From Patescibacteria group bacterium (GTDB lineage Bacteria; Patescibacteriota; JABMPQ01; JAQVVF01), in the NCBI GenBank assembly GCA_041662665.1, contig JBAZSC010000001.1, positions 513,511 to 577,510 of the forward strand: a stretch of 64,000 nucleotides of DNA, read 5' to 3'. The notes below the pieces were generated by a model that saw nothing but the letters and a program-made list of their open reading frames with translations, made no database searches and was not told the origin of the DNA. The position numbers were made by a program, and so were the translations under genes. Below, piece after piece: positions 1 to 28,200 of this stretch (within the stretch, counting starts at the first letter, position 1; every line of letters starts with the position of its first letter).

Positions 1-264
1 CTTTTACTTCATTTTCTTTTACTATTTTTCGTAATGTAAAAAAGTAATCAACAGAGCTCAAGCCAAACATTCTAAGAGAGCTATTATAGCTTTTTCGGAT
101 AATTTTAAAGCCTTGTTTTTTATCAAAATCGGACGCATTAGAATTAATTGGTGCCCAAACTACGACCTTATCAGAAGGCAATCTTTTGCAAATGTTATAA
201 AGATAATTTTGAATTCCACCTCTTTCTGGAGGAAAGAAATAGGTGAGAAATAATGATTTTTTCA
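1..264 (-). CDS. Glycosyltransferase family 4, N-terminal part (partial, runs off the window start)
   Basis: Reverse-strand ORF with start codon at 262-264. N-terminus MKKSLFLTYFFPPERGGIQNY... is the typical GT4 N-domain motif (FPPxxGG). Missing from the ORF track because there is no stop inside the window. Confidence 0.5.
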
Positions 265-423
265 TGAAATTTATGAATTGAATATTGAATATTTAATATT
301 GGCGTCGAGAGTCGGATAATATTCAATATTTAATATTCAGTAACTTTATTCTACCAAATAATCAAAAATCACACAAATATTGCTATTATATTGGCTTAAA
401 CAAGGGAAAGTGATAAAATCCCA

Positions 424-452
424 TTGACAAGATTTTTAGATTGTGCTAATCT
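424..452 (+). promoter_or_regulatory. sigma70-like promoter: TTGACA, 17-nt spacer, TAATCT
   Basis: TTGACA at 424-429, 17-nt spacer, TAATCT at 447-452. AT-rich host-like promoter reading into the GC-rich CDS; RBS GAGGAGG precedes the ATG at 531. Confidence 0.5.
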
Positions 453-530
453 ACTAAGTTACAATCCTCAGGTTCTGGAGAGAAAGGCAAGAACACTCAC
501 AACGAGAGAGAAAACGAGGAGGCAAGGGAA

Positions 531-1598
531 ATGAAGCGCACCAACAACATGCTCAAGATCGTGGCGGCGGGTTTCGTGATGTTCATGATGATGTTCAACT
601 TCAACCCCTTCTACAACTACTTCTACGACGAGGACGAGGGTGTCGCGTACGCGCAGGGCGAGCAGAGCGAGAAGGTGGAGTGGAAGATGTTGGACGCTGG
701 GTTCCAGGGTCAGAACGTGGCCTGGAAGAGCGAGTGGTCCTCCATGGTCATGGATGCGAAGTCGATGGTTGATATGAATCCGCTGAGTTGTGTAGAGGTG
801 AAGGGTTTCGAGGACGTGATTGGCTACGGCCAGTCCAAGCAGGAGCGCCTGGAGATCCGGGTCGCGGGTGGCGAAGAGCCCCTGCGGCAGGATCGGGCGC
901 GCAAGCGGATGATCTACGTGATGAGCAAGATTCGTGAGACTGGGCTGGAAGGTGCACAGGTCAAGGAAGGAATCCCCGTCATCAACGCCCCCAAGGGGCA
1001 GCGTGGCGCGGTGATCACCCTGATCAAGGATTGCATTCCCAAGCCGCCTGTTGCCTGCTGGGATACGAACCAGAACAGCCAGTGTGACTACGAGGAAGAC
1101 GTCAACAAGGACAACAAGTGTGATGTCATCGACTGCAGGGGCGACGATGGATCGAACGGTCGGAACGGCAAGATGGACATCGACTACGACTTCATCGGCC
1201 AGTACATGGTGAGCTTCGAGCGACCTGACTTCTACGGCTTCGAGCTTCGCGTCAACTTCCCGGTCAGCGACATGCTGATGCTGGGACTGGGCGCGGAAGC
1301 AGGGAAGTCGGACGGTGTGGCGGCGGCGGGATTCGAGCTGGCTGGAGAGTACGATCTGAACCGCTACTTCAAGCCTCGTCTCTCCCTGGTCGGTCGGGCG
1401 TTCGAGCTCGACAATCATCTCTACTTCGGTAGGGGTGAGATCGGCGGAGGGCTGGGGTTCGTCGGCGAATTCGCGGAGTTCGACCACCTCTCCCTGATCT
1501 ACGAGCTCCGAGGAGAATGGAAGGGAGAACTGGCGACGGGCAGGCGGGAATGGAAGGACGTGAAGTCCGGGGTCTTCGACCTCGGCCTCCGGTTCTAG
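531..1598 (+). CDS. Secreted beta-rich protein encoded in GC-rich DNA; homolog of CDS 3410..4663
   Basis: N-terminal hydrophobic signal/TM segment. Strong GC3 codon bias. C-terminal alternating hydrophobic strands ending in ...GLRF (aromatic C-terminus, OMP-like). Blocks align with 3410..4663 (EKVEWKMLDAGF/EKIVQKWDLVDAAL; PLSCVEVKGFEDV/PTSCLDIAGIDDV; KGQRGAVITLIKDC/KGIRGVRITLVKGC; YDLNRYFKPRL/YDLVYLKPRI). Confidence 0.6.
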   Translation: MKRTNNMLKIVAAGFVMFMMMFNFNPFYNYFYDEDEGVAYAQGEQSEKVEWKMLDAGFQGQNVAWKSEWSSMVMDAKSMVDMNPLSCVEVKGFEDVIGYGQSKQERLEIRVAGGEEPLRQDRARKRMIYVMSKIRETGLEGAQVKEGIPVINAPKGQRGAVITLIKDCIPKPPVACWDTNQNSQCDYEEDVNKDNKCDVIDCRGDDGSNGRNGKMDIDYDFIGQYMVSFERPDFYGFELRVNFPVSDMLMLGLGAEAGKSDGVAAAGFELAGEYDLNRYFKPRLSLVGRAFELDNHLYFGRGEIGGGLGFVGEFAEFDHLSLIYELRGEWKGELATGRREWKDVKSGVFDLGLRF

Positions 1599-1692
1599 TT
1601 CGAGAAGCTCCGGGCGCCCGACAAGACAACCGGCTGACAAGAAGTCGGGCGCCCGGTTCCGGTGGCAAGAACGGTTCGAGAGGAGGTGTGCG

Positions 1693-2331
1693 ATGAACGC
1701 GTTCGCGAAGTTCCTGTTCTGCCTGCTGATCGGTCTGTGCCTGTCCATCAACTGGAGCTGCGCGCTCCGCGAGGACGCCCAGCCGCCGGAAGACGGTGGC
1801 GAGGGCGAGGGAGAAGGCGAGGGCGAGGGTGAGGGCGAAGGTGAAGGGGAAGGTGAGGGTGAAGGCGAAGGAGAAGGCTGCGAGGGCGAAGGTGAGGGCG
1901 AGGGCGTGGAGTGCCAGGACGGTGAGCTCCGCCCGTGCAACTGCGACAGCGGCGACGTCGGCTACCAGACCTGCAAGGGAAGCTGGGGCGAGTGCGTCTG
2001 CGACTGTGGCGGCGACTGCGAAGGTGAGGGCGAGGGCGGCGAGGGGGAGGGTGAAGGTGAGAGCTGCTCGGTGTGGATCCAGGATGGGATGCTGTGTGGT
2101 GACATCGCTGGTCTGACTTCGTGGACGTTCGGCTGCATGCCTCCGGGTGTGGAGTCGGTCTGCGAGCTGAAGACCTTCGGTGGAACCTGCACGATGATCC
2201 CGACTGGTGTCGACTCCGCGTGGCCCCGTTCGATCAACGGTGTCTGGCTGACAGTCGTGGGCTGCATGGCTCGCGACGGTCTCCAGATCACCAGCGATCC
2301 GAGCGGCGGCCACTACCTGACCCTGCCGTAA
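1693..2331 (+). CDS. Secreted acidic Cys-rich protein with (GE)n low-complexity repeat
   Basis: RBS GAGGAGG upstream and an N-terminal signal peptide. GGCGAG-type hexanucleotide repeat at about 1797-1875 encodes (GE)n. The Cys motif TCKGSWGECVC resembles the C..G..TC...GSWG.C modules of CDS 25243..28200. Confidence 0.5.
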   Translation: MNAFAKFLFCLLIGLCLSINWSCALREDAQPPEDGGEGEGEGEGEGEGEGEGEGEGEGEGEGCEGEGEGEGVECQDGELRPCNCDSGDVGYQTCKGSWGECVCDCGGDCEGEGEGGEGEGEGESCSVWIQDGMLCGDIAGLTSWTFGCMPPGVESVCELKTFGGTCTMIPTGVDSAWPRSINGVWLTVVGCMARDGLQITSDPSGGHYLTLP

Positions 2332-2423
2332 GATCTTCAATCCCGCCCGACAAACGCAAGTGCGTCGGGTGCGGCCTCTCTCAACACAACAACAAGCAAT
2401 TCCTGTACATTCTGTTCCTTTAA

Positions 2424-2451
2424 GAGTTCACTTCAGTGAGCTCTTTTTTTA
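2424..2451 (+). terminator. Intrinsic terminator
   Basis: GAGTTCAC-TTCA-GTGAGCTC hairpin followed by T7. Confidence 0.6.
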
Positions 2452-2452
2452 T

Positions 2453-2479
2453 CCGCCGAAGCCTGAAAGGCGAAGGCGG
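2453..2479. repeat. GC-rich REP-like hairpin element, copy A (CCGCCGAAGCC-loop-GGCGAAGGCGG)
   Basis: Same motif family recurs at 8243-8275, 20527-20562 (inside ugd) and 21570-21624. Confidence 0.5.
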
Positions 2480-2496
2480 ATTTTGTTCAAATTTTA

Positions 2497-7729: not shown

Positions 7730-8227
7730 TTAGCGTAATCTCAACTGTATCAAGTTTCTGCAAGGTTCATCCGCAATTGAAAAAAGTGCGACAGGACCGT
7801 TACTATTATAGAAAATCATTCCTTCTTTGCTCAGAGATGTTATTTCTACGAGCTTATAATCTTGCTTGAAGGATTCAAGACTAGCAGTAGAATCTAAGCC
7901 CTTAGCTAGACATTCCCAAGCAGTAACTTCACAAAAAGCTAAAATTCCATAGATATAATGTCGAGGCATTTCAAACACTTCTCCAGGTTTTGGCATGTCA
8001 GTTCCAGTACTTTTTCTAAACCAATAGATATGAAGTTCTTTCTGGCCAAGGCAGATAAATTCGCACTGCATTGACTCAAAGATTCTACCTGCGTAGATTC
8101 CCTTTGATGCAACTTTAAAAGACAAAGGATACAGATTATAGACATATGCATCAAGTAAGTGTTTTTCTTCGCCATGTTCAGAAATTCGAATAATGACACC
8201 CTGACCAACTTGCCATTCATTTTTCAT
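7730..8227 (-). CDS. Hypothetical protein (165 aa)
   Basis: ORF with SD GGAGGG 5 nt before the second ATG (MKNEWQ...). Own promoter. GC somewhat above neighbours. No recognisable family. Confidence 0.5.
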   Translation of the reverse strand: MKNEWQVGQGVIIRISEHGEEKHLLDAYVYNLYPLSFKVASKGIYAGRIFESMQCEFICLGQKELHIYWFRKSTGTDMPKPGEVFEMPRHYIYGILAFCEVTAWECLAKGLDSTASLESFKQDYKLVEITSLSKEGMIFYNSNGPVALFSIADEPCRNLIQLRLR

Positions 8228-8242
8228 TTGTCCCTCCATTGT

Positions 8243-8275
8243 CCGCCGTAGCCATTTGAATTGTGGCGAAGGCGG
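8243..8275. repeat. GC-rich REP-like hairpin element, copy B (CCGCCGTAGCC-loop-GGCGAAGGCGG)
   Basis: Lies in the 5'-UTR of the minus-strand gene 7730..8227. Same family as 2453-2479. Confidence 0.5.
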
Positions 8276-8301
8276 GCTTTTTCTAGGGTGCGACTGTCAT
8301 A

Positions 8302-8619: not shown

Positions 8620-8647
8620 TTCGCATATTCGTAGATTAGCATAAATT
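8620..8647 (+). promoter_or_regulatory. Conserved promoter/operator element, copy 1: TTCGCA, 16-nt spacer, TAAATT; spacer contains GTAGATTAGC
   Basis: Shared with 11157-11225 and 20104-20201; immediately upstream of the ATG at 8669. Confidence 0.5.
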
Positions 8648-10690: not shown

Positions 10691-11155
10691 ATGATATCGA
10701 TAGATCAAAATCTAATTTCACAAACCTTAGAACAGGCAAAGGATAATCCTCGTCATCGACAAATTTTTCGTTTTCACAAATTAAAAGAACCAGTTCAGAG
10801 AATGCTCAATGCTTTATTGCCAGACAGCTATGCTAGACCGCATTACCATTCTGACAAGCCAGAAGTATTTATAATTTTAAAAGGCAAATTAGCAATTATA
10901 AAATTTAATAAGCAAGGAAAAATAATTCAGCAAGAAATAATTAAAAGTTCAGGTCCAAATTTTGGCGTTGAAATAAAACCTAAAGAATGGCATAGTATTG
11001 TTGCTTTAATTCCATCTGTTGTATACGAAATTAAAAAAGGACCATATATTAAAAAGACTGACAAAGTTTTTGCCAAATGGGCGCCTGAAGAAAACACTGA
11101 TGAAGGACAAAAATATTTAAAAAAACTTAAAAATATAATACGAATATACAAATAA
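10691..11155 (+). CDS. WbuC-family cupin fold metalloprotein
   Basis: About 150 aa cupin with the YARPHYH motif; typical of WbuC proteins in O-antigen clusters. Confidence 0.55.
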   Translation: MISIDQNLISQTLEQAKDNPRHRQIFRFHKLKEPVQRMLNALLPDSYARPHYHSDKPEVFIILKGKLAIIKFNKQGKIIQQEIIKSSGPNFGVEIKPKEWHSIVALIPSVVYEIKKGPYIKKTDKVFAKWAPEENTDEGQKYLKKLKNIIRIYK

Positions 11156-11156
11156 T

Positions 11157-11225
11157 GCTAATCTACAAAAATACGAATTCGCATATTCGTTGATTAGCAT
11201 AAATTTATAGATTCGTATCACACTA
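11157..11225 (+). promoter_or_regulatory. Conserved promoter/operator element, copy 2 (GCTAATCTAC...ACGAAT/ATTCGT...GATTAGC nested inverted repeats; TTCGCA, 16-nt spacer, TAAATT; ...ATTCGTATCACACTA-ATG)
   Basis: Aligns with copies at 8620-8668 and 20104-20201. Confidence 0.55.
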
Positions 11226-13273: not shown

Positions 13274-14104
13274 ATGAAAATATTAATAACCGGCGCTCGT
13301 GGCATGTTAGGCCAAGATTTATGTTCTCTTTTAGAAAAAGAACATGAAATAATAAAATATGATCGCGAAGAATTAGATATTACAAATGCAGAAATGGTTG
13401 ACGAAGTTCTGCCAAAATTAAATCCAAATGCAGTTATAAATTGTGCTGCTTTTACTGATGTTGATGGTTGTGAAGAACAAACAAAAAAAGAAATTGCCAT
13501 GAAAGTTAATGGCTATGGACCAGGAAATCTAGCCAAAGCTTGTGCAAAATTAGACATCCCATTTTTTCATTACAGCACAGATTATATTTTTAATGGCCAA
13601 GAAAAAAATGGCTATAAAGAAGATTATGACAAAATAGATCCAATCAATGCTTATGGCGAAACAAAAGCATTGGGTGAAAAATTAATTAAAGAAAATTGTA
13701 CAAAATATTATATTTTAAGAACAGCCTGGCTTTATGGAAAATTAGGCAAAAATTTTGTTGACACAATGTTGCAATTAGCTCAAAAAAATGATAATTTAAG
13801 GGTAGTCAACGATCAGCACGGCAAGCCAACTTTTACTTTAGATTTAGCCAAAAGAACAAAAGAAATTCTGGATCAAAAAGTGAAGCCAGGAATATATCAT
13901 GTAACCAATGAAGGAGAAGCGAGTTGGTACGATTTTGCTAACGAAATTTTCAAAATTAAAGGCGTAAAAATAAAAGTTACGCCATGCAAAACTTCTGAAT
14001 TTCCAAGGAAAGCTATAAGACCAGAATATTCCGCATTAATAAATACTAAATTACCGGCAATGAGAAAATGGCAAGAGGCGTTAGCCGAGTATTTAGCAAA
14101 CTAA
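13274..14104 (+). CDS. rmlD: dTDP-4-dehydrorhamnose reductase
   Basis: MKILITGARGMLG...; YSTDYIFNG motif; 276 aa. Confidence 0.8.
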   Translation: MKILITGARGMLGQDLCSLLEKEHEIIKYDREELDITNAEMVDEVLPKLNPNAVINCAAFTDVDGCEEQTKKEIAMKVNGYGPGNLAKACAKLDIPFFHYSTDYIFNGQEKNGYKEDYDKIDPINAYGETKALGEKLIKENCTKYYILRTAWLYGKLGKNFVDTMLQLAQKNDNLRVVNDQHGKPTFTLDLAKRTKEILDQKVKPGIYHVTNEGEASWYDFANEIFKIKGVKIKVTPCKTSEFPRKAIRPEYSALINTKLPAMRKWQEALAEYLAN

Positions 14105-20104: not shown

Positions 20105-20201
20105 TACAAATCTACGAATTTTATGCTAATCTACGAAAATACGAATGCGCCGATTCGCATATTTGTAGATTAGCATATATTCGTAAATTCGTATCACACT
20201 T
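20104..20201 (+). promoter_or_regulatory. Conserved promoter/operator element, copy 3 (GCTAATCTAC-N...-GTAGATTAGC inverted repeat; TTCGCA, 16-nt spacer, TATATT; ...ATTCGTATCACACTT-ATG)
   Basis: Longest copy. Contains a GCGCCG insertion and a duplicated ATTCGTA segment relative to copy 2. Confidence 0.55.
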
Positions 20202-21518
20202 ATGAAAATCGCAGTTGTCGGCACTGGTTACGTTGGCTTAGTCACTGGTGCATGTTTGGCAAAAGTAGGTCACACAATTACTTGTGTAGATATAGATAAA
20301 AATAAAATTGCCAGATTAAAAAAAGGCATTATTCCAATCTATGAGCCAGGCTTGGACAAAGTTGTCAAAGAAGTAATAAAAAAGAACAAGCTTAGTTTTG
20401 ATATTTCATTAAAAAATGTTTTAAGCGAAGTGCAAGCTGTATTTATTGCAGTCGGCACTCCAGCCAGAAAAGATGGCAAAGCTGATCTAAAATATGTTTT
20501 TGACGTTGCAAAAGAAGTAGGTGAAACCTTGGCCGCCGAAGCCAGCAGGCGAAGGCGGCAGGATTATAAAGTCATTATTAATAAAAGCACAGTACCAGTT
20601 GGAACAGCAAAAGAAGTCACAAATATTATTGCAAAATATTATAAAGGCGAATTTGCTGTTGTCTCAAATCCAGAATTTTTGAAAGAAGGCTATGCAGTTG
20701 ATGATTTTATGAAGCCAGACCGAATTGTCGTTGGCACTTCTTCCAAAAAAGCTAAGAAAATAATGCAAGAAATTTATAAACCTGTAAAAGGTAAAAAAGT
20801 TTTTACGGAAGTGCAAAGTTCAGAGATGATTAAGTATGCATCAAATGCTTTTCTAACAACCAAAATTTCTTTTATCAATGAAATAGCAAATCTTTGCGAA
20901 TTAGTCGGTGCTGATGTAAAAGAAGTTTCCTTTGGAATGGGATTAGACAAAAGAATTGGCAAGAGTTTTTTGAACGCTGGAATTGGTTATGGTGGTTCCT
21001 GTTTTCCAAAGGACACTACAGCCTTAAATCAAATTGCTGGTACAAAAGGTTATGATTTTAAATTGCTAAAGGCAGTTATTGAAGTTAATTCAAAGCAAAG
21101 AAAATACGTCATTGATAAATTAGAACAAGTTTTCGGCAATTTAAAAAATAAAAGAATCGCAGTTTTGGGCTTAGCTTTCAAAAATAATACCGATGATGTT
21201 AGAGAATCAGCTTCGATAGATATTATCAGAATGTTGACCGGAGTTGGCGCAAGAGTAAAAGCCTATGATCCAAAAGCAAATGATAACGCAAAAGAAATTT
21301 TAAATTCTGGAGTTAAAATTACTAATGATCCATACGAAGCAATAAAAAATTCAGACGCATTAGTAATTGCAACAGAATGGCCAGAATTTGCTAATTTAGA
21401 TTTTGATAAAATCAAAACATTATTAAAAAAGCCAATCATAATTGATGGCCGAAATTTGTTAAATTCTGTTATAATAAAAAAACTCGGCTTTCAGTATTAT
21501 GGAATTGGCCGAGCTTAA
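20202..21518 (+). CDS. ugd: UDP-glucose 6-dehydrogenase
   Basis: MKIAVVGTGYVGLVTGACLA...; catalytic GGSCFPKD; 438 aa. Confidence 0.9.
   Translation: MKIAVVGTGYVGLVTGACLAKVGHTITCVDIDKNKIARLKKGIIPIYEPGLDKVVKEVIKKNKLSFDISLKNVLSEVQAVFIAVGTPARKDGKADLKYVFDVAKEVGETLAAEASRRRRQDYKVIINKSTVPVGTAKEVTNIIAKYYKGEFAVVSNPEFLKEGYAVDDFMKPDRIVVGTSSKKAKKIMQEIYKPVKGKKVFTEVQSSEMIKYASNAFLTTKISFINEIANLCELVGADVKEVSFGMGLDKRIGKSFLNAGIGYGGSCFPKDTTALNQIAGTKGYDFKLLKAVIEVNSKQRKYVIDKLEQVFGNLKNKRIAVLGLAFKNNTDDVRESASIDIIRMLTGVGARVKAYDPKANDNAKEILNSGVKITNDPYEAIKNSDALVIATEWPEFANLDFDKIKTLLKKPIIIDGRNLLNSVIIKKLGFQYYGIGRA
20527..20562. repeat. GC-rich REP-like element inserted in frame within ugd (encodes LAAEASRRRRQD)
   Basis: GGCCGCCGAAGCC-AGCA-GGCGAAGGCGGC matches the intergenic motif at 2453-2479. 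A GC-rich patch in an otherwise AT-rich CDS; reading frame preserved. Confidence 0.6.
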
Positions 21519-21554
21519 AATCAAAAATATAAAAACTTAAAAATATTTTTCTAC

Positions 21555-21633
21555 CCTGGCCATGTTTATCCGCCGATTTATCTGCCGTAGTTTTTAACGA
21601 AGGCAGAAGTAACGACGGAGGCGGACCAGGGGT
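21555..21633. terminator. Compound GC-rich hairpin (REP-like copy C) followed by a T-run; bidirectional terminator candidate
   Basis: Outer stem CCCTGG/CCAGGG, inner TCTGCC/GGCAGA, with CCGCCG...GGAGGCGG motifs, then TTTTTATTTT. Confidence 0.5.
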
Positions 21634-21635
21634 TT

Positions 21636-22058
21636 TTATTTTAAATCATTTTGACTATTATCTAACAACAAATAAGATATTAGCCATATTAAAACACCAG
21701 AAAGTATTGAAATTATAATACTTAAAACAATTCCCAAAGACATAATTTTTACAAAAATTAAAATTGCAGCAATTAATCCTAAGAAAAAAGCAAGTATCGA
21801 AAATTTCCAAGAATTTTTTTCTTGATTTTCTGTAACTAATTTATCATCATTGTCTTTAATAAGAATTAACAATATTCCAGAGATAATAACAATTGCAAGT
21901 ATATAATTCAAATTGATAAAATTACTAACAAAATTATCAAATATCTGATCAATCAAAAAGAAAAATAAATAGCCAATCAAAAAAATTCCAAATATTTGTT
22001 GAAAAATAATATTTAATATATCTTTATAATTTTTTTGCCCAGACAAATTTTTTTCCAT
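21636..22058 (-). CDS. Small integral membrane protein (about 4 TM)
   Basis: Hydrophobic segments only; no recognisable family. Confidence 0.45.
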   Translation of the reverse strand: MEKNLSGQKNYKDILNIIFQQIFGIFLIGYLFFFLIDQIFDNFVSNFINLNYILAIVIISGILLILIKDNDDKLVTENQEKNSWKFSILAFFLGLIAAILIFVKIMSLGIVLSIIISILSGVLIWLISYLLLDNSQNDLK

Positions 22059-23830: not shown

Positions 23831-23978
23831 ATATTAAAAGTATACCATATATTTTACATCAATAATATAAAATTGAAAACTTGACAAGTGGATAATCTTT
23901 TGTTACGCTATTTTGAAGCAAATCTGTGCCGAAGTACCGAAAAACAACCCGTTTCCGAGAGAAGAGGAGGAGAAAAAG

Positions 23979-25004
23979 ATGAGAATCCTGAACTTTCTAG
24001 TATTTTGTGGAGTTGCTTGTTTTTCATCGACTGCTTATACTCAAGAAGAATCCGAAAGCAAGTCGGATATTGCTATTGTTTTGATGTCTGAAGAAACTCA
24101 TGATCAGAGAATGGTAGATGATGCTGTTGAAATGATTATTGCCAAATTTTCAAATGAAAAGATCCAGTCTTCTGGCAAAGAAATGTTTGGCAGTGATTCT
24201 GATGAACAGATCAAAACTTGTCTGAAAGACAATTCTTGTGTACAAAAAAAAGCTGTGGAAAAACATGTTTCCCGAGTATTTTATGGAACTTTGGCTAGTG
24301 ACAGAAGAGTTGAAAATGTTGTAGTTATCACTCCTGGCAAGAGATACAATAAGATCAAGGATGTTGTTCCAGTAGAGAAGAAAACTCTGACTATTAGACT
24401 GACTATGTTTGATGCAGTCAACAACAAGGTTGAAATGTCATGGGTGAGCAAAAAGATTGAACCAAGCAAACTCGCTTCTGAAGTTCTGACTGACATTGCT
24501 TCCGAAGCTGTTCGTATCTACAAGGCAAGTCCACTGACCTGGCCAGAAACAAAAAAGCCAAATACTGAAGTCAAGGTTGAAATTGTAAATGTCGATCCTG
24601 TTTCAGAACCAGCCAAGCCAGTTGTCGAAGAAGTGCAGGAAAAGCCAATCGTTCTGCTGGATCCTGAAGTGAGCAATTTGGATTGGCATTTCTGGACGAG
24701 CGTTGGCGGTGCAAGTGTCGGTGTAATCTTGATTTCTGCAGGCAGTTACTACGGTCTCAAGTCAAGCAATGCTAGCGACAATTATGATGCAACCAACATT
24801 CAGACCCAGGCAGAAAGCTTTAAAGATGAAGCAGAATCTGCTGGATCAACTGCTAACATTATGTTTGCTTCTGGTGGAGTTCTGATTGCAGGCAGTGCAG
24901 CTCTTTATGTTCTTGATCAATTCGGTATTCTCGATGCCAATGAATCACCTCAGGCAGTTTTCGTGCCAAAAGACGGCATGTTCTGTTTGAACCTTTCGTT
25001 CTAA
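23979..25004 (+). CDS. Secreted/membrane-anchored hypothetical protein
   Basis: Strong SD (GAGGAGGAG), signal peptide MRILNFLVFCGVACFSS, C-terminal hydrophobic segments. The ATG at 23979 is preferred over the ORF-track start at 23913. Confidence 0.55.
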   Translation: MRILNFLVFCGVACFSSTAYTQEESESKSDIAIVLMSEETHDQRMVDDAVEMIIAKFSNEKIQSSGKEMFGSDSDEQIKTCLKDNSCVQKKAVEKHVSRVFYGTLASDRRVENVVVITPGKRYNKIKDVVPVEKKTLTIRLTMFDAVNNKVEMSWVSKKIEPSKLASEVLTDIASEAVRIYKASPLTWPETKKPNTEVKVEIVNVDPVSEPAKPVVEEVQEKPIVLLDPEVSNLDWHFWTSVGGASVGVILISAGSYYGLKSSNASDNYDATNIQTQAESFKDEAESAGSTANIMFASGGVLIAGSAALYVLDQFGILDANESPQAVFVPKDGMFCLNLSF

Positions 25005-25242: not shown

Positions 25243-28200
25243 ATGAGACAAACAGCATTAATGTTTTTGTTGTCCTTGTATTTTGTTGGTTGTATTGCAG
25301 AGTTGGCACCTGCTGATGAAAAGAATGGAAAGAATCTTTGTGATGAAAATGCACGTTGCTCTGATGGCTATACTTGTGTTTGCAACATGAATAATCATTC
25401 CAAGATTTGCGTGAAGAATCCGAATGCTGAAATGATTTTGGCAAACAAGTCTACTGTCTGTGAAGAGACTATGTCTGACACCGGACCCGATGCTGAAGCT
25501 GACGCCGAAGTTGGAACAAGCGCTGATATCGACGCTGATTCTAACGCTGAAGCGGACGCTGAAGTCGGAACGCCTGATGAAGATTCGACGACTGATACAG
25601 ATGCCAACGCTTCTACCGATGTCGAGCCTGATGAAGGCAACGATGTTGGTAATGACGCTCAGCCTGATGTCTCGCCTGACAATGGAACCGATCTCGGTTC
25701 TGATGTCGGTGAAGATGTTCCTTGTATTCCCGCAACCGAAATCTGTGATGGCGTTGACAATGACTGCGATAGCTATACTGACGAAGATTTCAACAATCTG
25801 AATCAGTCCTGTTCTGTCGGACTCGGTTTGTGTGAGAACGAAGGCGTTTACGTTTGTAGTACCGATAGAAGCACAACTGTTTGTAATGTTGCAGCTTTTC
25901 AAGCTTATCCTGAAGAATGTGATGACATGGACAACGACTGCGATGGCCAAACTGACGAAGATTTGGTTGGCTGTTGCGACGTTGACGCTGTTCAGGAATG
26001 CGGATCTGATGTTGGGGAATGTGTGAAGGGCGAGATGACTTGTCAGGAAGATGGCAGTTGGGGCGACTGTGAAAACGCTGTTGGTCCGACTGTTGATCTT
26101 TGCGACAGTCTTGACAATGACTGTGATGGCGCAACTGACGAGGATTTTCTGAATCGAGGGATGGAATGCCAGATTGGTCAAGGCAACTGTCTTTCTAATG
26201 GCAATTATGCTTGTACTGAAGATATGTTTGGAACTTTCTGTGCAGCTCTGATCATCCAGCCGTCCAATGAGGCTTGCGATCAGCAGGATAATGACTGCGA
26301 TGGCGCAACTGATGAGGACTTGGTTGGATGTTGCGAGCCTAACGATCAGGTCGAATGCGGATCCGCTGTCGGCGAATGCCGTAAGGGTCACAAGACTTGT
26401 TCGATTGATGGTGTGTGGAGCGAATGTCTTGAAGAAGTGAAGCCAATGGCTGAACTTTGTGATGGCAAGGATAACAACTGCGACGGTCAGACAGATGAAA
26501 CCTTTGCTAATCTGAACAGCGAATGTCAGATTGGGCGTGGTGAATGTCTGTCGATTGGTCGCATGACTTGCGGTGTTGATCAGCAGTCAACGTCTTGTAA
26601 TGCAGATATCCTCACCGGCAACGATGAGATCTGTGATAACAAAGATAATGACTGCGATGGCGATGTTGACGAAAATCTGCTGCGTGAATGTGGCAGTGAC
26701 GTCGGTGAATGTGAGATCGGTATCCAATCTTGTTTTGCTGGTGGCTGGCTTGCCTGCGAAGGTGAGATTCAGTCGAGCGACGAGATTTGTGATAACCTTG
26801 ATAACAATTGCGACGGTAATACAGATGAAGGTTTCAACATCAACGATCAATGCTTTGAAGGTCTTGGCGAATGCCAGGCTGAAGGCGTGATCGTTTGTGT
26901 TGATGAGAATATGAGTGCTTGCAATGCAGTTGTCGGTCAGCAGTCGGAAGAGACATGCGATGGCTTGGACAACGATTGCGATGGCAATACAGATGAAGAG
27001 TTGGAAAATTGTTGTATTCCTGATACCATTTCCGAATGCGGTATTGACACTGGCGAATGTGTGAAGGGAACTTCCACTTGCCAGGCAGACCGTACTTGGG
27101 GTTGGTGTTTGGATGCAACTGGACCATCGGATGAAATCTGCGATGGATTGGATAACAACTGCGATGGCGAAACAGACGAAGGTTTGACTGGTTGTTGCTC
27201 ACCTTCCGTTTCTCGCAACTGCGGATCTGATGTGGGCGAATGCTCTCATGGGACGCAGATTTGCTGGGAAAGCCGTGAGTGGGGCGAATGCCAGAATCAG
27301 ACTTTGCCTGCAAATGAAATCTGCGATGGACTTGACAATGACTGCGATGGCCAGACAGACAATGGATTCGACCTCATGGCTGAAGCCAATAACTGCGGCC
27401 AATGCAATTATGTTTGTGGCAGTCAGGGGACAGTGAGTACTACTTGCGAAGCAGGTGAGTGCGTTCTGACGTGCAGCCGCTTCCGAGTTGATTTGAACAC
27501 TGATCCGACTGACGGCTGTGAATGTGAAGTCACCAATTGCGGTGTGGAAATCTGCGATCAGGTGGACAACGATTGTGATGGTGCAATTGACGAAGACTGT
27601 GATTCTCTCGTCATGTACCTGAGCTTCGATGGACACATGAATGATGGATCTACCAATGCCAACAACGCTCTCAACCATGGCGCCACTTACACTGCTGATG
27701 CAGTTTGTGGCCAGGCAGCATCGTTCGACGGAGTCGACGATTATGCCGAAGTGGCTGATAGCGTGAGCATGGATTCGATTGTGAATGAGTTTACGATTTG
27801 CGTTTCAGCAAATGTGACTGATTACGAAAGAGGTGATGTTGTATTCTCAAAGTTTAGGCTGCAACCAGCACTTGGAATCGAATGGAACGATGTAACTATG
27901 GAAAACAACTGGACATTCTTTTTAAACCGAGTAAAGCTTGCTCAGGGAAGAACTGTTAATGTGAATCAGTGGATTACTTTCTGTGGGAAATTCAAGCAAG
28001 GAGTTTTTACTGCATACATTGATGGCGAACAAATTTGGCAAGGTAATGCTCAAAACCCAGTTGGCGGTATTACCTATATTGGGTCTAACGATATGCCACC
28101 AGCCAAGAACAGCCACACAAAGATTGATGAGACTACATTTTATAACGTTGCACTTTCCGATGAGGAAATCCAGCACTACTTTGAAATCATGAAACGCTAG
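25243..28200 (+). CDS. Large secreted (lipo)protein with 11 MopE-like/TSP3-like Cys-rich Ca-binding repeats (CDGxDNDCDGxTDE) and a C-terminal LamG/concanavalin-A-like domain
   Basis: Strong SD, signal peptide with ...YFVGC. N-terminal acidic DAEADAEVGT repeats. Eleven copies of C-D-x-x-D-N-D-C-D-G-x-x-D-E alternate with two types of Cys-knot-like spacers. C-terminal LSFDG...DGSTNANNALNHGAT...ASFDGVDDYAEV is the LamG_3 signature. GC about 45-50%. Confidence 0.7.
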   Translation: MRQTALMFLLSLYFVGCIAELAPADEKNGKNLCDENARCSDGYTCVCNMNNHSKICVKNPNAEMILANKSTVCEETMSDTGPDAEADAEVGTSADIDADSNAEADAEVGTPDEDSTTDTDANASTDVEPDEGNDVGNDAQPDVSPDNGTDLGSDVGEDVPCIPATEICDGVDNDCDSYTDEDFNNLNQSCSVGLGLCENEGVYVCSTDRSTTVCNVAAFQAYPEECDDMDNDCDGQTDEDLVGCCDVDAVQECGSDVGECVKGEMTCQEDGSWGDCENAVGPTVDLCDSLDNDCDGATDEDFLNRGMECQIGQGNCLSNGNYACTEDMFGTFCAALIIQPSNEACDQQDNDCDGATDEDLVGCCEPNDQVECGSAVGECRKGHKTCSIDGVWSECLEEVKPMAELCDGKDNNCDGQTDETFANLNSECQIGRGECLSIGRMTCGVDQQSTSCNADILTGNDEICDNKDNDCDGDVDENLLRECGSDVGECEIGIQSCFAGGWLACEGEIQSSDEICDNLDNNCDGNTDEGFNINDQCFEGLGECQAEGVIVCVDENMSACNAVVGQQSEETCDGLDNDCDGNTDEELENCCIPDTISECGIDTGECVKGTSTCQADRTWGWCLDATGPSDEICDGLDNNCDGETDEGLTGCCSPSVSRNCGSDVGECSHGTQICWESREWGECQNQTLPANEICDGLDNDCDGQTDNGFDLMAEANNCGQCNYVCGSQGTVSTTCEAGECVLTCSRFRVDLNTDPTDGCECEVTNCGVEICDQVDNDCDGAIDEDCDSLVMYLSFDGHMNDGSTNANNALNHGATYTADAVCGQAASFDGVDDYAEVADSVSMDSIVNEFTICVSANVTDYERGDVVFSKFRLQPALGIEWNDVTMENNWTFFLNRVKLAQGRTVNVNQWITFCGKFKQGVFTAYIDGEQIWQGNAQNPVGGITYIGSNDMPPAKNSHTKIDETTFYNVALSDEEIQHYFEIMKR

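Follow-up and report, generated by a model that had tools for sequence, protein, structure and literature searches.

Four hairpin copies in an AT-rich window

The stretch analyzed here (the window) comprises 64,000 nucleotides of a Patescibacteria genome (GenBank assembly GCA_041662665.1, contig JBAZSC010000001.1, positions 513,511 to 577,510) and contains a short GC-rich hairpin at four sites, one of them in frame inside ugd, a gene of the UDP-glucose/GDP-mannose dehydrogenase family. Outside two GC-rich islands the window is AT rich (~29% GC). Its genes include those of cell envelope polysaccharides (glycosyltransferases, an O-antigen-ligase-like gene, rhamnose pathway genes, and ugd), and its RNA genes are two tRNAs, with no rRNA.

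The hairpin was sought as the strict motif CCGCCGWAGCC-N(2-25)-GGCGAAGGCGG (22 specified bases), which has three exact matches in the window, all on the plus strand (2453-2479, 8243-8275, and 20533-20558). None is expected by chance, and none of 100 shuffled versions of the window contained a match. The fourth copy is nested. The hairpin copies and the features that enclose them are as follows.

2448-2480, plus strand: copy 1, with tail TTTAT, hairpin CCGCCGAAGCC-TGAAA-GGCGAAGGCGG at 2453-2479, and closing A
8238-8277, plus strand: copy 2, with tail ATTGT, hairpin CCGCCGTAGCC-ATTTGAATTGT-GGCGAAGGCGG at 8243-8275, then GC
20202-21518, plus strand: host gene ugd, 438 amino acids, Pfam PF03721/PF00984/PF03720
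20528-20559, plus strand: copy 3, inside ugd, with tail CTTGG at 20528-20532, hairpin CCGCCGAAGCC-AGCA-GGCGAAGGCGG at 20533-20558, and closing C at 20559
21554-21637, plus strand: terminator-like long hairpin behind ugd, CCCTGG...CCAGGG plus a T-run, enclosing copy 4
21565-21624, plus strand: copy 4, an inner copy within an outer copy (outer hairpin 21570-21624)
21565-21576 and 21608-21624, plus strand: outer part of copy 4, TTTAT-CCGCCGA ... AGTAACGACGGAGGCGG
21577-21607, plus strand: inner part of copy 4, TTTAT-CTGCCGTAGTTTTTAACGAAGGCAG-A, inserted between CCGCCGA and AG

All four copies fold into an outer stem of 5 to 6 bp, a 3x3 internal loop (GAA/GAA or GUA/GAA), and an inner stem of 3 to 5 bp, with z-scores of -2.7 to -3.6. 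Three of the four lie in a sense context. Directly ahead of copy 1 is the T-run belonging to a canonical terminator (2422-2445), and genes for tRNA-Lys and tRNA-Leu lie downstream. Copy 2 is antisense to the minus-strand gene at 7730-8239, immediately upstream of its ribosome-binding site, and copies 2 and 3 both lie away from gene ends. Copy 4 sits inside the T-run hairpin behind ugd, which folds at -32.3 kcal/mol (z = -3.0) and is not called by a simple terminator scan; its inner hairpin (21582-21606, CTGCCGTAG-TTTTTAA-CGAAGGCAG) differs in sequence from the outer copy that encloses it. The original prediction, made from the letters alone, had described a palindrome with an internal mismatch loop at four sites: behind a terminator, in the 5' leader of a minus-strand gene, inside ugd, and, in an expanded nested form, downstream of ugd. 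The motif search, folding, and dissection of copy 4 bear out this description.

The in-frame ugd copy and presence or absence between relatives

Translation of ugd around the insert reads ...GETLAAEASRRRRQDYKVIINKSTVPVGT. Empty sites were identified in the syntenic relatives L003, L004, and L007, whose proteins are ~85% identical to those of the window. Relative to these, ugd has a net gain of 27 nt (20532-20558), i.e., nine codons (A111-R119, AAEASRRRR). The closest Ugd homologs (86, 84, 82, 75, and 74% identity) are all 429 amino acids long, versus 438 here, and their alignment with the window protein contains a single gap of exactly nine residues. The spacing between the GTP and KSTVP motifs, measurable in 117 of the 120 closest homologs, is 34 residues in 116 and 43 only in the window Ugd, and the homologs without the insert include syntenic relatives with 84 to 86% protein identity. 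The peptide reads as had been predicted and its insertion is confined to this lineage at that spot; the position was exact, and the size is 9 residues rather than about 12, with flanking codons remodeled as well.

Two trivial explanations would be an assembly or chimera artefact and an ancestral Ugd loop lost elsewhere. The same insert occurs in two more independent assemblies (L001 from Logan and L002 from JGI), ugd being identical in the 645-kb contig of the NCBI metagenome-assembled genome, the Logan assembly, and the JGI contig; the insertion is therefore not an assembly artefact. An ancestral loop is contradicted by the absence of the segment from 116 of the 117 measurable homologs, nearest relatives included; orthologs sharing the peptide, named beforehand as the case that would speak against an insertion, were not found. 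Finally, at the DNA level the segment agrees with the intergenic copies in all 22 specified bases. Both explanations are regarded as refuted.

In an AlphaFold model of Ugd built from 12 sequences, a helix at residues 97-117 spans most of the insert (mean pLDDT [predicted local distance difference test] of 76 for residues 111-120), and a strand at 123-127 comes next. The insert is accordingly modeled as extending the helix just ahead of the KVIINKSTVPVGT strand in the NAD-binding domain, which fits a lengthened surface helix. A surface loop just before the conserved KSTVPVGT segment had been proposed.

Copies are present or absent elsewhere too. At the site of copy 2, L007 has TGTCCCTCC joined directly to TTCTTTAAGGTGC (TTCTTT after the junction), and the window has TGTCCCTCC followed by ATTGTCCGCC...GGCGGGC and then TTTTTCTAGGGTGC, an insert of ~40 nt that includes the ATTGT tail. 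In place of copy 4, relatives carry a plain terminator, ACGAGCTATTCTAGCTCGTTTTTT. The reverse case is found in L007, where a hairpin at 13524-13551 adjoins CCCTCC (a ribosome-binding site in antisense) and the matching window site, 23913-23980, has none. A threonyl-tRNA synthetase (ThrRS) gene of Patescibacteria (L338, 6085-6126) contains a 42-nt in-frame insert composed of the hairpin and a second small hairpin, TCCCCCATAGGGGGA. This insert is missing from homologs of 63 to 78% identity and from Staphylococcus aureus ThrRS (1NYQ), and its junction shows no duplication; the ThrRS homologs that could be named belong to Patescibacteria and Minisyncoccia. In L437, a 79% ThrRS relative, the insert has a 12-nt in-frame internal deletion, and the series L338, L437, and L436 looks like stages of decay. 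Comparison of filled with empty sites (ugd, 5' leader, and ThrRS) revealed no target site duplication.

As copies are present or absent at matching sites between relatives, in both directions, the element moves. The view that it is active or recently active applies only to the evolutionary distance between relatives with ~85% identical proteins, and nothing points to present-day activity.

No transposase would be needed for such differences if one copy gave rise to another through ectopic gene conversion or patch repair, or if template switching and slippage built and extended palindromes. The empty ugd site in the syntenic relatives reads GAA AAC ATT AAA GAY, and the filled site reads GAA ACC TTG [GCC GCC GAA GCC AGC AGG CGA AGG CGG] CAG GAT; five of nine flanking nucleotides have also changed, giving the element's own tail, CTTGG, and closing C. 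Seen in this way, the event looks like a replacement of 9 nt by ~36 nt in which the flanks were remodeled toward the element tail. The direct repeat CGAAG...CGAAG within the element, tandem or half-unit duplications (L326, L388, L435, and "SADKSADK" in L370), and the internal deletion in L437 would likewise suit such processes. Nevertheless, one and the same 22-nt sequence at unrelated sites, or in unrelated phyla, is beyond what slippage can produce. The inner part of copy 4, differing in sequence from the outer part, is not a local duplication, and no homology that could guide conversion is seen at the empty sites of ugd, ThrRS, and the 5' leader. Slippage and gene conversion account for some local duplications and deletions (L326, L388, L435, and L437) and not for dispersal; as a general explanation they are improbable.

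Anatomy, distribution, and insertion behavior of the family

The strict pattern was searched in one genome per species of bacteria and archaea and in metagenome contigs, many of 32 to 45% GC. Each scan returned at least 120 stretches, those from species genomes belonging to many phyla, and a further 80 stretches came from viral contigs. Hosts among the species-genome matches listed are Acidobacteriota, Bradyrhizobium and other Alphaproteobacteria, Verrucomicrobiota, Bacteroidota, Planctomycetota, Omnitrophota, Burkholderiaceae, and Patescibacteria/Saccharibacteria. Half of the matches listed are the exact 24-mer CCGCCG[A/T]AGCC-TT/TC-GGCGAAGGCGG, whereas chance would scatter them over gap lengths. 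The family is thus cross-phylum and present in phage contigs and, contrary to the association first drawn, is not peculiar to reduced genomes.

The unit is ~30 nt long. An unpaired 5' tail is followed by a GC-rich outer stem of 6 bp, a symmetric 3x3 internal loop of purines (G-W-A facing G-A-A), an inner stem of 2 to 5 bp, and a short terminal loop, often CTTG. Across 121 copies, the flank consensus is C-T-T-G-Y before the stem and R after it; the tail CTTG(Y) occurs in 60 to 70%, and positions -1 and +1 pair as covarying Y-R in 96 copies. The standard unit is set at 30 nt on the basis of this tail consensus and these paired positions. Tails in the genome studied here are TTTAT, ATTGT, and CTTGG. 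In a search that held nothing but the core CGWAGCCTTGGCGAAG constant, outer stems proved variable yet paired (CCGCC/GGCGG, CCTCC/GGAGG, CCCCC/GGGGG, CCGAC/GTCGG, GTGCC/GGCAC, and others): 83% of outer-stem cells were paired versus 70% in shuffles and at most 51% in slid controls, and there were 135 double-change cells versus 55, values that none of 500 shuffles reached. The asymmetry of the internal loop (GWA versus GAA) is kept on one strand, and this suggests that the recognized form is a single strand.

Two other identities were rejected. An archaeal bulge-helix-bulge intron would have loops staggered by 4 bp, and the two 3-nt loops of the hairpin face each other. An IS91-type CTTG target is excluded by the tail itself, which comes with the insert and is missing from empty sites.

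Landing sites include hairpin loops, the vicinity of terminators, 5' leaders, and the interiors of open reading frames (ORFs). Self-nesting occurs at one fixed point, between CCGCCGA and AG, in window copy 4 and in L080 alike. The latter, an Omnitrophota contig, has at positions 1-130 a "Russian doll" array of (CTTGTCCGCCGA)x4, one full unit, and (AGCCTTGGCAAAGGCGGA)x3 or more; the contig ends within the array, and such arrays may break assemblies. Bradyrhizobium hairpins sit in the loops of other palindromic repeats, which probably explains the "large GCGG/CCGC loops" of GTAG-14 REPs (repetitive extragenic palindromes) in PMC3733652. Inverted doublets are common in other genomes (L022, L035, L049, L127, and L346), with none in the window.

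Several recurrent placements were seen next to other genes. In one group of lambda-like phage contigs (L134, L162, L178, and L198), the hairpin lies between an upstream stop codon and the portal gene start, antisense to both. It directly precedes RNase P RNA in L011 (1549-1965) and follows a tRNA at a distance of 33 nt in L029, both RNA genes being confirmed with Rfam, and tRNA T-arm sequence seen by eye beside the hairpin in L031, L039, L093, and L106 suggests tRNA adjacency there too. Copies adjacent to RNA genes in Saccharibacteria and Patescibacteria often have an extended inner stem and a UACG loop.

Residence inside ORFs is frequent at low GC. In a sample of 50 copies from low-GC loci, mostly picked with an A/T-rich 3' flank, 28 lie in frame inside long ORFs, and all three frames are used. 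The GAA strand is antisense in 22 of these and sense in 6; intergenic copies lean likewise, as do the few copies in low-GC genomes contributed by the genome scan, in which no flank condition was set. The typical ORF copy is exactly 10 codons (SAFAKASADK, PPSPRLRRxx, or IRLRQGFGGx), keeps the frame, and contains no stop codon; judged by their reading frames, ORF copies appear to be translated. Hosts in AT-rich metagenome ORFs (L346/L424, L406, L414, L359, and L339) are Mur-ligase-, UvrA-, MnmA-, and TatD-like, assigned by flanking sequence motifs alone, and L346 has an inverted hairpin doublet inside the ORF.

The ugd insert might instead be left untranslated: either the mRNA would lose it or ribosomes would jump over it, as happens with mitochondrial "byp" elements and T4 gene 60. 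A stable GC-rich hairpin in a coding region of an AT-rich genome resembles the setting of byp elements. Against this, net length changes, where measurable, come in threes (27 nt in ugd and 42 nt in ThrRS), with 30 nt for the typical ORF copy. ORF copies also use all three frames and are free of stop codons in the frame used, which only reading through them would predict. The peptides that they encode are benign and helix prone, and the modeled Ugd insert would simply extend a helix. Bypass is accordingly given very little weight.

Another explanation is that the hairpin is a functional RNA or DNA motif, such as a terminator, an mRNA end stabilizer, or a protein binding site, that is kept by selection and for which spread is secondary. 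The terminal loops are of classic stable tetraloop types, and the purines of the GWA/GAA internal loop likewise form a stable motif. A terminator precedes copy 1 and a terminator-like hairpin encloses copy 4, the slot before the portal gene in the group of lambda-like phages is fixed, and the core is identical across phyla. The 3' arm 12-mer TGGCGAAGGCGG (window 20547-20558) is also identical to a universally conserved stretch of 16S rRNA (~Escherichia coli 721-732), which would count in the same direction. No structural match with 16S helix 22 or 23a could be derived despite this identity, and mimicry of those helices was rejected. A local regulatory need cannot explain copies in ugd, ThrRS, and Mur-ligase-like and UvrA-like ORFs. 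Moreover, the 22 antisense versus 6 sense orientations in low-GC genomes mean that the mRNA bears the weaker UUC/UWC version. Gain and loss between close relatives also argue against maintained function, and Rfam searches (the window at the gathering threshold, eight loci at an E-value threshold, and an 81-nt slice) gave no family for the hairpin and only a chance microRNA hit. A selected motif is therefore considered an unlikely origin of the family.

Relationship to known palindromic elements and neighboring features

The hairpin is probably a very small nonautonomous mobile DNA element of the REP/REPIN kind, with behavior like that of the Rickettsia palindromic elements (RPEs). The prediction of a selfish family of this type with an in-frame copy in ugd is supported by the nine-codon ortholog gap and by two further copies with presence/absence differences. 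The mobile form would be a hairpin of single-stranded DNA, and an enzyme of the HUH/Y1 type (RAYT, i.e., REP-associated tyrosine transposase, -like or "class 3" TnpA-like, as the architecture suggests) or another factor might cut and rejoin it in trans. Insertion carries the 5' tail along without target site duplication. In-frame survivors would be what selection leaves behind, and some intergenic copies may now act as terminator or stabilizer hairpins.

The REP/REPIN elements and RAYTs of E. coli, Pseudomonas, and Stenotrophomonas (Y1 HUH) offer the broadest comparison. As with these, copies are dispersed, often found after genes and near terminators, and in some cases in frame in ORFs; REPs inside ORFs were already known (PMC3733652). 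The unit shares with REPs a GC-rich imperfect palindrome of 20 to 40 nt that folds into a stem-loop, here with outer-stem covariation, an unpaired conserved 5' tetranucleotide, inverted doublets (in other genomes), and insertion without target site duplication (ugd, 5' leader, and ThrRS). Unlike REPs, it has a large intragenic share in AT-rich genomes, and no hairpin-flanked RAYT gene was found in the loci scanned.

The closest described relatives in design are the "atypical" REP-like hairpins that flank class 3 TnpA-Y1 genes in Solibacter, Planctomyces, and Legionella (Quentin et al. 2018, PMC6006769), of which the Solibacter example, CCGAG-CCGC-GA-CC-GTAA-GG-GA-GCGG-A, has ~600 copies (PMC6006769, Table S1). 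In both, the tail comprises 4 nt and one further base, the stem is CCGC(C), and a symmetric internal loop of purines is followed by a short stem of 2 to 3 bp, a tetraloop, and a closing A; their hosts overlap (Acidobacteria, Planctomycetes, and Proteobacteria), and copy numbers can be high. They differ in the tail (CTTG versus CnGA), the internal loop (3x3 GWA/GAA versus 2x2 GA/GA), and the terminal loop (CUUG type versus GNRA). A CnGA tail was not found, CCGA or GCGA preceding the tail only in nested or REP-loop cases.

Rickettsia RPEs are likewise selfish palindromes that occur in frame in genes, housekeeping genes included, of a small genome rich in AT, where the added surface peptides are tolerated. 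Frame-preserving insertion into ORFs is shared by the hairpin (ugd, ThrRS, and other ORFs). RPEs are ~100 to 150 bp, form families RPE-1 to RPE-8, and are restricted to Rickettsia and relatives; the hairpin is set apart from them by this size, its unit being 27 to 42 nt (~30 nt), and by its cross-phylum range. Yeast mitochondrial GC clusters are also short GC-rich mobile palindromes in a very AT-rich genome, sometimes in coding sequence. They reside in a eukaryotic organelle, their sequence and target differ from those of the hairpin, and there is no sign of common origin.

A number of observations weigh against a REP-like mobile element. The GT[AG]G 5' tetranucleotide of REPs is not present, the tail being CTTG(Y). 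REPs are normally lineage specific and coevolve with their RAYT, whereas the same 22 bases, including an identical core, occur in more than 10 phyla and in phage contigs. An HUH/Y1 motif scan found none in the window and ~12 kb of flanks, nor in the first ~2.7 Mb of loci, and the hairpin flanks none of the three RAYT-like ORFs in the metagenome loci. All-against-all clustering of neighboring ORFs revealed no recurrent gene beside the hairpin, only generic families (sigma-54 activators, ABC transporters, and kinases) and phage head genes. Hairpin orientation relative to local GC skew gave no signal (53 to 69). Density is low: the window together with 10 kb to the right and 2.4 kb to the left (~76 kb) holds four copies, those flanks adding none. 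Judging from the aligned codons, the ugd event is not a simple clean insertion, or later change followed, since flanking codons changed too. Finally, CUUG, UUCG, and UACG loops are classic stable RNA tetraloops, so that constraint at the RNA level, as for a selected functional motif, is possible.

RAYT-like ORFs (HxH ... YxxxNP) do occur in hairpin-bearing metagenome loci (L324, 2509-3030; L409, 6198-6941; L414, 2892-3485); in L324 and L409 the bordering repeats are different ones, namely CCGGGGCTTCAGCCCCGG or a long inverted repeat. Furthermore, BLAST searches of the consensus against plasmids gave only five weak matches, and no correlation between tail and loop sequences (an IS608-style guide) was seen by eye. 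Literature searches for the hairpin strings returned mainly 16S rRNA sequences, because TGGCGAAGGCGG is identical to the conserved 16S stretch, and unrelated primers, with no match to the hairpin family; those for the insert peptide strings and for palindromic elements in the candidate phyla radiation (CPR) found nothing relevant.

That soil Acidobacteriota, Bradyrhizobium, Verrucomicrobiota, Bacteroidota, Omnitrophota, and phage contigs share one 30-nt unit is contrary to what REP biology would predict and points to horizontal spread or a shared mobilizing factor. More tentatively, all copies might represent a single pan-bacterial mobile element of ~30 nt (core CGWAG-stem-loop-CGAAG), moved by a shared host enzyme or a phage-borne function rather than by lineage-specific RAYTs. 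This stronger version is possible and rather doubtful; if true, no transposable element of wide distribution described so far would be smaller, and the hairpin would form a new class next to REP/RAYT.

On the reading as a REP-like mobile element, the notable traits are tiny size, cross-phylum identity, and frequent in-frame residence in essential genes of Patescibacteria. The genomes of these CPR bacteria are very small and streamlined and are thought to be poor in mobile elements; a selfish hairpin would still enter them, including the genes for such essential enzymes as Ugd, ThrRS, and Mur-ligase-like proteins. When genes are called or proteins aligned from metagenome-assembled genomes, inserts of this kind inflate and disturb the results. 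Conversely, presence or absence of the hairpin offers a simple marker for strain tracking, and the inserts mark natural "permissive sites" in enzymes.

A second palindromic element of the window, ATGCTAATCTAC...GTAGATTAGCAT, lies upstream of the ugd gene (20122-20177) and of a HIT family gene (11154-11201), with a fold z-score of -7.4. Single arms are found at 8628-8643 (minus strand) and 442-457, ahead of a GT4 gene and the first GC-rich gene, and the leader ATTCGTATCACACT is conserved just before ATG after both full copies. From its placement, the element looks like an operator common to envelope sugar genes. The copy ahead of ugd has one addition at its center.

20147-20154, plus strand: GCGCCGAT, an 8-nt GC-rich extra at the center of palindrome 20122-20177, relative to the copy at 11154-11201

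A GC-rich hexamer had been noted at about this position; the extra is real and has 8 nt instead of 6. It is possibly a remnant of the hairpin 5' arm, its kinship to the hairpin family being unproven.

The two GC-rich islands occupy window positions 1-2400 (53% GC) and 25243-28200 (~48% GC), versus 29% GC for the genome. The first contains two ORFs (531-1598 and 1693-2331) with Gly/Glu-rich repeats and no Pfam match. The second encodes a 985-amino-acid protein, conserved in relatives, that combines a Laminin_G_3 domain with five MopE metal-binding motifs.

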